DNA from: Bdellovibrionales bacterium
Lineage (GTDB): Bacteria > Bdellovibrionota > Bdellovibrionia > Bdellovibrionales > JAUICD01
NCBI GenBank assembly: GCA_965203275.1
Contig: OZ241865.1
Coordinates: forward strand, 1,568,001 to 1,632,000
Direction of reading: 5' to 3'
Length of the DNA: 64,000 bases
Below are positions 30,424 through 32,331 of the stretch, one piece after another; position 1 is the stretch's first letter, and each line of letters starts with the position of its first letter. The notes below the pieces were generated by a model. It ran no database searches. It was given only the letters and a program-made list of their open reading frames with translations, and was not told where the DNA came from. Both the position numbers and the translations under genes were made by a program.

Positions 30424-30942
30424 TTGGAGAGTGAGATCATGTTTCAAAAAATAAGAAAGGCCATTAAATATCTATCAAGACCACGACAATTTATGTATTT
30501 ATATGCTTTATTGGCAGTGTTCTGGCTACATGCCTTTTATTTAATCTATGAAGATAATTATCTAAAAGCTAAATTTAAGTCTGATCAAGAGATAGCAAAT
30601 CAGGAATTATCTCTTAATAAAACAATGCAAATCGATATTAACACTGCACGTAAAGCTTATGATGGCATCTTTGATCCGGACGAGGCTATCAGAGATAAGA
30701 AAATAGATACTTTAGAGAGGTTTCTTAATATATGCGATAGTGCCTCTTGTCGAGTGATCAGTGGGTTAGAGCCGACACGTGATGTTTGCAATAATGAGCT
30801 GTCAACATCCCGGAATTTTCATAAGTATAGGGTGTATTCGTGTAAATTAAAGATCACAGTAGAGAACAACGAGCCTATGGATTGTACGAGGGTAATTTGG
30901 AGTTCGGTAAAGGGACTTTGTGAAAGATTAAATGATACATAA
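30424..30942 (+). CDS. Hypothetical membrane-anchored Cys-containing protein (possible pilin accessory)
   Basis: One N-terminal TM helix and 6 Cys; directly after pilA. Start probably at the ATG a few codons in. Confidence 0.65.
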   Translation: MESEIMFQKIRKAIKYLSRPRQFMYLYALLAVFWLHAFYLIYEDNYLKAKFKSDQEIANQELSLNKTMQIDINTARKAYDGIFDPDEAIRDKKIDTLERFLNICDSASCRVISGLEPTRDVCNNELSTSRNFHKYRVYSCKLKITVENNEPMDCTRVIWSSVKGLCERLNDT

Positions 30943-30983
30943 AACCTTTTTGAGAACTTAAAAGTATTTAGCGTTTTCATGGT

Positions 30984-31016
30984 AAAGAGGGCCCTCACGA
31001 CAGGCCCTCTTTTTTT
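30984..31016 (+). terminator. Intrinsic terminator
   Basis: AAAGAGGGCC-loop-GGCCCTCTTT plus T-tract. Confidence 0.88.
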
Positions 31017-31018
31017 AT

Positions 31019-31047
31019 TTGACTTTCTTAGAAATTAATCCTATACT
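31019..31047 (+). promoter_or_regulatory. Sigma70 promoter for 31095 ORF
   Basis: TTGACT-N17-TATACT. Confidence 0.75.
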
Positions 31048-31094
31048 AAAGCCAATTGATTTTAGAAATATTAATTTAACAAAGAGAGGACGTT

Positions 31095-31325
31095 ATGGAT
31101 AAGAAAAAAGAGATAAAAGGTTTTAATAAGTTTTTGAAAGATTCTGAAATAATAAGAGATCTAAAGGATGCTAAAAAAAATTTAAATGAAACTTTTAAGA
31201 AAGAGTCTAAATTAATTAAGAGTTATAAAAATAAAAGAGCAGACTCCCTAGCTCTTTTTTTAAAAAAAGAGTTTATAGCTTTTATAAAAAAAGTTGAGAA
31301 TAAAATAAAAAAATTAAAGAAATAA
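31095..31325 (+). CDS. Small Lys-rich helical hypothetical protein (76 aa)
   Basis: GAGAGGA RBS and own promoter; no family recognised. Confidence 0.65.
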   Translation: MDKKKEIKGFNKFLKDSEIIRDLKDAKKNLNETFKKESKLIKSYKNKRADSLALFLKKEFIAFIKKVENKIKKLKK

Positions 31326-31410
31326 ATATGAAAAGTCCTTATGGTCATCCTGACTGGAAACGAGAAAATAGAGGGAAATAAGAAGTCTAAATTAATCTAA
31401 TTCTAAATAA

Positions 31411-31439
31411 TTGAGTTTATCCAAAGAGGATGAGATACT
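31411..31439 (+). promoter_or_regulatory. Sigma70 promoter for crRNA-like unit 1
   Basis: TTGAGT-N17-GATACT with extended TG at 31431-31432; +1 predicted at 31446. Confidence 0.65.
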
Positions 31440-31445
31440 ATAATT

Positions 31446-31517
31446 AATTTCTACTGTTGTAGATTAGATAATGGTAAGCTATAAAAAGAGGCCTTTCCTT
31501 GGTGGCCTCTTTTTTTT
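31446..31517 (+). CRISPR. Solitary type V-A (Cas12a) crRNA-like unit 1: handle + 18-23-nt guide + terminator
   Basis: AATTTCTACTGTTGTAGAT (31446-31464), guide TAGATAATGGTAAGCTAT(AAAAA), then terminator. Confidence 0.8.
31483..31517 (+). terminator. Intrinsic terminator closing crRNA-like unit 1
   Basis: AAAAAGAGGCC-N10-GGCCTCTTTTTTTT. Confidence 0.88.
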
Positions 31518-31593
31518 AATAAATTAAGGAAAAAGTGCAATATTTAAGCCTTCCGTCGCTTATATATCTTTTAAAAAACCTCTTTTTAAAGGT

Positions 31594-31833
31594 CTATTTA
31601 AAAGTCATAAGTCCATGGCTATCTTGATCATTAATATTCTCATATTCTATTAACTTTTTTATAGTGTTAATATGGCCTCTCTCACAAGCATACATTAAGG
31701 CTGTCTTTTTCTTATCTTTACCTTCTATTGAATCCATTAAACTAGTCGCATCATTAAGTACTTGAAACATGGTTAATATATCCATTTGTTTGATTAAAAA
31801 ATTCATTTTACTGAAAATGTGGTGTTTGGTCAA
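31594..31833 (-). pseudogene. Ankyrin-repeat gene fragment
   Basis: Single repeat KTALMYACERGHINTIKKLIEY, then an early stop. Confidence 0.55.
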
Positions 31834-31862
31834 GGGATGATGCGGCCTGTTAAAAGTTTTTA

Positions 31863-31891
31863 TTGTTTTTTTTTTAAAAAAAAGCTATACT
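31863..31891 (+). promoter_or_regulatory. Sigma70 promoter for the TM/coiled-coil ORF
   Basis: TTGTTT-N17-TATACT. Confidence 0.55.
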
Positions 31892-31916
31892 AATACTTAT
31901 GAAAACGGAGGTTATT

Positions 31917-32228
31917 ATGGACATATCAGTAGATATTAAGTTGATAAAGGATTTTTTTATAAAACATCCTATATTTTCCGTTATTATATTCATTATTGTA
32001 GTGATGATATGGTTTTGTTCTTGGTCTTTGTATCGACAGCTATCTAATCATTTACCTACACAGATCACAGAGATTAAGGACGATATGAAAGAATTGAAAG
32101 AAGATATGAAAGATGGGTTTACAGAAGTTAATAGAGATATAAGAGAAGTTAATAGAGATATGAAAGATGGGTTTACAGAAGTTAATAGAGATATTAAACG
32201 TCTTCTTGAAAAGTCTAATCAAGAATGA
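31917..32228 (+). CDS. Small single-TM plus coiled-coil protein with internal repeats
   Basis: GGAGG-TTATT-ATG at 31917; TM IFSVIIFIIVVMIWFCSWSL; repeats MKDGFTEVNRD. Confidence 0.75.
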   Translation: MDISVDIKLIKDFFIKHPIFSVIIFIIVVMIWFCSWSLYRQLSNHLPTQITEIKDDMKELKEDMKDGFTEVNRDIREVNRDMKDGFTEVNRDIKRLLEKSNQE

Positions 32229-32234
32229 TATACT
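32206..32234 (+). promoter_or_regulatory. Sigma70 promoter for crRNA-like unit 2
   Basis: TTGAAA-N17-TATACT with extended TG at 32226-32227; +1 predicted at 32241. Confidence 0.75.
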
Positions 32235-32240
32235 ATAATT

Positions 32241-32331
32241 AATTTCTACTGTTGTAGATAAACTTTACTGTTAATCCTAGTATATTGTATTTAAAGCTAT
32301 AGGAGTTAAACTACCAACAAAGCCCTATAGC
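32241..32331 (+). CRISPR. Solitary type V-A (Cas12a) crRNA-like unit 2: handle + guide + hairpin
   Basis: AATTTCTACTGTTGTAGAT (32241-32259), guide AAACTTTACTGTTAATCCTAGTA..., hairpin GCTATAGG/CCTATAGC (32296-32331). Confidence 0.8.

Follow-up and report, generated by a model that had tools for sequence, protein, structure and literature searches.

The window analyzed here, a 64-kb stretch of a Bdellovibrionales genome (C1:1568001-1632000 of genome G000), contains a block in which two small genes alternate with two short crRNA-like units, each composed of a predicted promoter, a 19-nt type V-A handle, and a guide-like segment (Table 1). All elements named in the original prediction are present in the sequence where it placed them, and its observations were largely confirmed; the interpretation attached to them, i.e., CreTA-type modules in which a crRNA-like antitoxin represses a toxin, or anti-CRISPR (Acr) loci, is unsupported. 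The assignment of the units to a type V-A-type system held up because their handles are the same as that of the array in the same genome. No other handle occurs in the window when up to three mismatches are allowed.

Table 1. Features of the block in the window (window positions).
Feature	Position	Strand	Remarks
Terminator-like hairpin and U-tract	30984..31016	+	Closes the upstream 167-aa gene; unlisted by scanner
Promoter 1, predicted sigma70	31019..31047	+	TTGACT (31019-24)-N17-TATACT (31042-47); scanner-listed
76-aa Lys-rich orphan ORF with RBS	31095..31325	+	32% Lys, pI 10.1; single copy
"17-codon ORF"	31328..31381	+	Opens with a 24-nt DNA motif that recurs at gene ends
Gene-tail remnant	31379..31410	+	Homologous to the 3′ end/tail of the TM/coiled-coil gene preceding the paralogous unit G000:C1:1546831
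Unit 1 promoter, predicted	31411..31439	+	TTGAGT (31411-16)-N17-GATACT (31434-39), TG extension; legible in the sequence, unlisted by scanner
Handle 1, type V-A, 19 nt	31446..31464	+	Same sequence as the V-A array handle of this genome
Guide-like segment 1	31465..31482	+	18 nt up to the terminator stem; its first 5 nt duplicate the end of the handle; no target detected
Intrinsic-terminator-like hairpin and U-tract of unit 1	31483..31517	+	Predicted RNA of ∼70 nt
Ankyrin-repeat gene remnant	31594..31833	-	Between the cassettes; paralogous to the gene beside unit G000:C1:960086
Promoter 2, predicted, weak -35	31863..31891	+	TTGTTT (31863-68)-N17-TATACT (31886-91); legible in the sequence, unlisted by scanner
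103-aa single-TM and coiled-coil protein	31917..32228	+	One hydrophobic segment; 1 of 95 genome paralogs
Unit 2 promoter, predicted	32206..32234	+	TTGAAA (32206-11)-N17-TATACT (32229-34); scanner-listed
Handle 2, type V-A, 19 nt	32241..32259	+	Identical to the array handle
Guide-like segment 2	32260..32287	+	About 26-28 nt; no target detected
IS1634-like piece and hairpin	32286..32331	+	36 nt (32286-32321) resembling, at 89-92%, the end of IS1634 transposase genes of this genome; hairpin 32296-32331 without U-tract

In both units, the predicted transcription start falls on the first base of the handle. The −10 box of unit 1 ends 6 nt 5′ of the handle, and the predicted RNA is ∼70 nt long with a z-score of −2.97 over its whole length; its minimum-energy structure pairs the handle with the guide, and the handle hairpin is retained in the centroid structure. 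For unit 2, it was rightly noted that the −35 box overlaps the last codons of the preceding gene. Relative to a paralog, the ancestral −35 box of this unit was removed by a deletion, and the new TTGAAA restores a five-of-six match at 17 nt from the −10 box; 235 of 7,885 positions (3%) in the ends of family genes would do likewise. The promoter scanner listed 4 sites in the window compared with 8.4 in shuffled sequences and, thus, a consensus match alone is no evidence for a promoter. Neither unit has a second full repeat or a cas gene nearby, their 5′ half differs from the host repeat, and Rfam gave no matches across the window. The −10 box may represent the 5′ half of a foreign V-A repeat, as arrays in other genomes have TATAAT at this place. 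An exact-pattern search of 185,579 species genomes returned a TATAAT-fused handle in 5 stretches (four arrays and one at a contig edge), and none of 400 other genomes of the phylum gave a match, which does not prove its absence there.

The original prediction described the same layout as occurring twice. The individual elements are in place; however, the two cassettes are not copies of each other and have only a 38-nt block ending at the handle in common. Because promoter 1, the gene-end motif, the ankyrin remnant, and the IS1634-like piece are all recurrent or derived parts, the block is a mosaic of repeated parts rather than a twice-repeated operon. Promoter 1 belongs to a repeated promoter family with five other clear copies, all more than 30 kb from any unit. 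The 24-nt motif that opens the 17-codon ORF, which had been listed as a gene, is present in 17 copies, mostly at gene ends and with an ATG in only 4 of the 17, and this ORF is probably not a peptide gene. The terminator thought to insulate the block upstream does exist as a hairpin with a U-tract, but it is the usual 3′ end of the 167-aa gene family and, being common to the paralogs, it is not specific to the cassette. We also noticed that the reverse complement of the 24-nt motif (window:31328-31351) resembles the region 5′ of the −10 box of the units, that a type IV pilin gene precedes the 167-aa gene (window:29648-30942), of which several paralogs have the same terminator, and that an abundant structured repeat family begins directly after unit 2 (window:32336-32970). 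Similar structured repeats interrupt the last CRISPR repeats, inside the handle, in the arrays of G000 and of the related genome G001 (L013:12200-13450; L048:690-1080).

The block was also compared with four public sequencing runs from four studies (X2, X3, X7, and X8). Pieces of X2 (31026-31440 and 31441-32131) and of X3 (30940-31445 and 31435-32131) contain no differences, X8, a sponge metagenome, has a variant of 31435-31773 with five differences and six gaps, and X7 covers only parts of the block. No RNA data set was among the runs listed for this DNA. Unit 2 is spanned by none of the listed pieces, and no joint excising the entire block was found in these runs. Paralogous loci explain two joints (31046-31324 and 32104-32224).

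Using pattern and profile searches, we identified 20 dispersed units in the genome, including the two in the window and excluding two weaker handle candidates (C1:958685 and C1:1166640). The handles of 17 units align gap-free within four changes; the remaining three need gaps, and two of these look disrupted. The best predicted −10 box ends exactly 6 nt 5′ of the handle in seven units, among them both window units. A terminator-like hairpin follows the handle after 19-35 nt in 11 units and after 86-112 nt in four, and was undetected in five, including unit 2. In the seven units that are best preserved, identity amounts to 89% over the 18 nt preceding the handle and to 98% over the handle itself, compared with 28% over the guide (30% for shuffled sequences), and the 20 guides represent 14 unrelated families. 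Only 1 of 24 substitutions in the 17 alignable handles breaks the stem, compared with 25 of 57 possible single changes, although this conservation is overstated because the search patterns required most of the stem. At least three related tails have no handle; together with the disrupted handles, they demonstrate that copies of the unit do decay.

The handle of the window units is also that of the type V-A array at G000:C1:245.3-245.7 kb, which has six spacers. In the adjoining cas locus, the cas12a region (G000:C1:235350-238350; L001:3350-6350) encodes a Cas12a of 982 aa, which aligns with profile positions 327-1287; positions 1-326 are absent, corresponding to a loss of ∼320 N-terminal residues. 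The same protein start is present on two other contigs/assemblies, and the finding of the first cas12a codons just upstream in another frame indicates an internal deletion. A search of the genome for the REC1 family was blank, and its control was likewise silent. In a separate search of a genome-contig collection, no effector locus was confirmed. cas4 and cas1 are fragmented. A 1325-aa protein is divergently transcribed from cas12a (G000:C1:238803-242780; L001:6803-10780), and its only solved relatives are two Cas12a3 proteins (E-values of 1e-71 and 2e-58). The RuvC residues D804, E1044, and D1223 are invariant among 12 aligned homologs out of at least 120. Cas12a3 and Cas12a4 are RNA-triggered and cause growth arrest, and residues 855-960 of Ba1Cas12a3 form a tRNA-loading domain (PMC12851939). 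In our alignment, this domain falls in a gap opposite ∼46 residues of the 1325-aa effector; for this reason, we refer to the latter as Cas12a3-related and not as Cas12a3, and its sequence suggests that its collateral substrate may differ from that of Ba1Cas12a3. Judged by sequence, this Cas12a3-related, RNA-triggered nuclease is the only intact type V effector of the genome. It is split in two other assemblies, by error or by decay. The effector sits in a clade of ∼60 proteins with 42-59% identity.

The CreTA reading of the block is centered on the two small proteins. Searches with the 76-aa protein return only itself and no usable Atlas match; it has a weak 25-residue resemblance to a 97-aa protein encoded behind the same promoter family. 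The 103-aa protein matches no family above the curated cut-off and has only Atlas matches under 0.9; its close relatives are few in a set of 1.84 billion representatives, and it is weakly similar to small phage membrane proteins, all below confident thresholds. Neither protein matched a toxin or Acr family, although either could still have such an activity. The single-TM coiled-coil genes are expanded in the genome, occurring at window:31917-32228 and 94 other places in 52 clusters with a common 7-residue motif. Linkage above chance of homologs of the small genes to handles is borne out on the side of the units, 9 of 20 of which lie within 200 nt 3′ of a 103-aa family member, with 95 members among ∼1985 ORFs (binomial probability of 1.4e-7, for copies that are not independent and a family of which divergent members may be missed). 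It fails on the side of the genes, as 86 of the 95 members have no unit and only 9 do. The lack of a unit at these 86 genes and at the five other copies of promoter 1 is contrary to what is expected of a toxin that depends on an antitoxin.

The guides themselves do not support repression of the neighboring genes either. For the window guides, no TTTV-anchored match of at least 11/12 was found anywhere in the genome, and the best match within 1.5 kb was 10/15 compared with a mean of 10.2 for shuffled guides. Genome-wide and with no PAM required, the best matches were 16 and 17 of 20 compared with 16-17 for shuffles, and in the upstream regions of the 95 family genes, the window guides did not score above shuffles. 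The crosswise similarity of the guides to the promoters had been qualified as short, outside the seed, and possibly due to chance. The 8-mer is common, being reached by 17% of windows; the 9-mer of guide 2 in promoter 1 is rarer (0.75% of 2000 GC-matched windows, in one of four comparisons). It spans guide positions 12-20; when aligned accordingly, the guide matches at only 3 of its first 11 bases, and the flanking TGAC is not a PAM. Moreover, the DNA-binding effector that the CreTA model needs as a repressor, Cas12a, is truncated. CreTA/CrePA modules (10.1101/2024.01.05.574328) resemble the block in that a small protein gene adjoins a crRNA-like gene; as described, they lie inside cas loci, whereas the window units are more than 1.3 Mb away, lack PAM-flanked complementarity to the adjacent promoter, and belong to a set in which most protein paralogs are RNA-less, so that a consistent pairing of toxin, RNA, and cas genes is not found (9 of 95 members). 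Despite the above-chance linkage, the 9-mer, and the weak phage likeness of the TM protein, we therefore consider it highly improbable that the units are CreTA/CrePA-like modules in which a small toxin or Acr gene is silenced at its promoter by Cas12a under the direction of the neighboring guide.

A related possibility is that the units are relics of promoter-silencing guides of the CreR/Cracr type, which once aimed an intact Cas12a at PAM-flanked promoter matches and have drifted since Cas12a broke. CracrVA1 and the V-A CreR (10.1101/2024.10.29.618823; 10.1101/2023.03.10.532045) share with the units a single repeat-like handle, a spacer-like segment, and an intrinsic terminator, with a 19-nt handle and a guide of ∼21 nt. 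Their guides pair with the cas12a promoter next to a TTTA PAM and depend on an intact Cas12a; by contrast, the window guides match no promoter, Cas12a is truncated, and in the region of the cas12a/effector promoter, no guide match exceeded background. Known V-A regulators need about 9-10 PAM-proximal matches (10.1101/2024.10.29.618823), a level that the window guides do not reach at a cas promoter. The unit most closely paralogous to window unit 1, at C1:1546831, has a guide that does reach it, at the array leader. In the whole genome, this guide has a sole TTTV-flanked 11/12 site, which covers the −35 box predicted for the leader of the V-A array (C1:245218-245233); 0 of 3000 GC-matched windows reached this match, and the motif is also present in the G001 leader. 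However, position 6 is mismatched, the guide core also resembles the tail sequence of the family, and it is a single case from tests of 18 guides and several regions, making it by rough estimate a 1-2% chance event and a lead only, albeit one that counts against the decoy reading discussed below. Altogether, the same 18 guides (two duplicates omitted) have 44 PAM-anchored self-target sites compared with 52 for shuffles, and 11 compared with 10.4 in promoter zones. We regard relic silencing as quite unlikely.

Alternatively, the units could form a distributed array of one-spacer immune guides with their own promoters, programming the RNA-triggered effector against unsampled invader transcripts. 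The single scaffold, which carries unrelated guides and gives way to them where repeat meets spacer, is what such an array would look like. A second, degenerate handle is present at array-like spacing in the unit at C1:364012, and four long units have a degenerate second repeat-like block. On the other hand, the window guides have no exact match in viral contigs (exact scans miss variants), the 80 array spacers of three genomes show no resemblance to the unit guides, many of which seem to have arisen locally, and cas1 is in pieces, arguing that a distributed array is decidedly improbable.

The absence of excess self-targets, the conserved scaffold with divergent guides, and the presence of a cognate handle and a RuvC-intact effector in the genome are in line with a different function, in which the guide sequence is irrelevant. 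In the reading that we favor, to which we assign about an even chance, the units are Racr-like decoy RNAs that sit on small islands and damp the RNA-triggered type V effector. Given the observed layout, a sigma70 promoter would start transcription on or next to the first handle base and yield a ready-made crRNA mimic with an arbitrary guide of 18-28 nt. These RNAs would load into the type V effector of the host, today presumably the 1325-aa Cas12a3-related nuclease, and, being target-less, compete with the six real crRNAs in the manner of Racrs and non-targeting crRNAs. The units would travel on island-like patches as an appendage to the 3′ side of small orphan genes, the islands would gain by damping an effector of a growth-arresting class, and the neighboring proteins would be cargo or carriers and not guide-controlled toxins. 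Precedents exist in that Racrs and non-targeting crRNAs are described to inhibit by competition and effector sequestration (PMC10651486) and a spacer-mutated Cracr to still displace the crRNA (10.1101/2024.10.29.618823).

Compared with RacrVA1-3 (PMC10651486), the units are similar in having a solitary repeat with a predicted promoter immediately 5′ (here at the consensus level only), no cas gene nearby, a cognate host system, and no required target; the window handles match the host repeat handle in sequence and fold. They differ in that there are ∼20 chromosomal copies with unrelated guides, no recognized prophage or plasmid, and no known acr neighbors, and in that the likely partner is an RNA-triggered Cas12a3-related nuclease. 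Concerning a carrier, the exact promoter-handle pattern had no exact match in viral contigs and metagenomes, searches from which close-to-genome records may be excluded, and Terminase_3, the one terminase family searched, has no match in the genome, giving no sign of a phage origin of the units. Several units do adjoin transposase, HNH, or resolvase genes. Standalone V-A repeats near cas12a (10.1101/2023.03.03.530964) are likewise host-encoded and without an evident target, and have been proposed to bind and inhibit the effector; they are single and inside the CRISPR-cas locus, whereas the family studied here is large and dispersed. We found no description of many dispersed chromosomal V-A repeats, or of an RNA inhibitor of Cas12a2/a3/a4-type nucleases, in the literature searched, whose scope excluded most subscription papers and preprint supplements.

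The distribution of the handle speaks against decoys. Among 41 related genomes, 3 have the handle, and in G001 (60 handle matches) and G011 (16 matches), every match falls within a single array or at its tail. G001 shares the systems of the genome studied here, with a full-length Cas12a and presumably a homolog of the 1325-aa effector (P0008), and no dispersed units were found in it. In addition, the decay of the CRISPR locus, with cas12a truncated, cas4 and cas1 fragmented, and the effector split in two assemblies, weakens the case for a present benefit.

A further alternative is neutral hitch-hiking, in which a gene-end module composed of a promoter-like part, a hairpin, and a terminator once took up a repeat fragment, which then spread through recombination between paralogous tails without a present function, the guides being altered by local duplication, inversion, and deletion in a repeat-rich genome. 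Consistently, the promoters, the gene-end motifs, and also the terminators are repeated elements that have been shuffled, decayed and handle-less copies are present, units were not found in the relatives, and some guides look locally made, based on duplications of the handle end, tail-derived cores, and one apparent inversion (C1:960086 compared with C1:1168398). However, homology breaks at the 3′ end of the handle with both flanks still 90-98% alike, several different −35 boxes are retained at 17-18 nt, and the handle substitutions are mostly in the loop or produce G-U pairs. We, therefore, judge the neutral explanation to be unlikely. As a separate observation, a guide is complementary at 17 of 20 positions to the RNA of another unit (C1:960087-960106 and C1:1168416-1168435), followed by a purine-rich 5-mer, which could reflect either the inversion or cross-targeting.

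If the units load into and damp the effector, as in the decoy model, they would be natural 70-nt off-switches for a growth-arresting class of nucleases, and solitary repeats could reach ∼20 copies in a host chromosome. If they are neutral, they caution that CRISPR handles beside small genes are no evidence of CreTA. The set, with one scaffold and 14 guides, is a natural experiment on the importance of the guide sequence. More speculatively, a type V array may have broken into ∼20 singly promoted one-guide genes behind an expanding small-gene family, with spacers exchanged at the repeat boundary, to program or tune a growth-arresting, RNA-triggered Cas12a3-related nuclease without the known tRNA-loading domain, with at least one guide acting on the promoter of its own array; we consider this scenario improbable.

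Two further observations concern other defense loci. The leader-proximal spacer of the V-A array (C1:245323-245350) is identical at 26 of 27 positions to a spacer of a second array (C1:2266566-2266593), which has 37-nt repeats and adjoins a type II-B Cas9-like ORF below the family cut-off, suggesting that the two systems remember the same invader site. This match had been a candidate for a self-targeting spacer and was rejected because it is itself a spacer, in the same sense and without a TTTV flank; an argument from autoimmunity was consequently dropped. Finally, ∼1.5 kb from one of the units lies a four-gene operon encoding OmpA-like, EH_Signature, and SNF2-HNH domains (G000:C1:952163-958578; L043:163-6575), which we take to be Zorya-like from its gene order.
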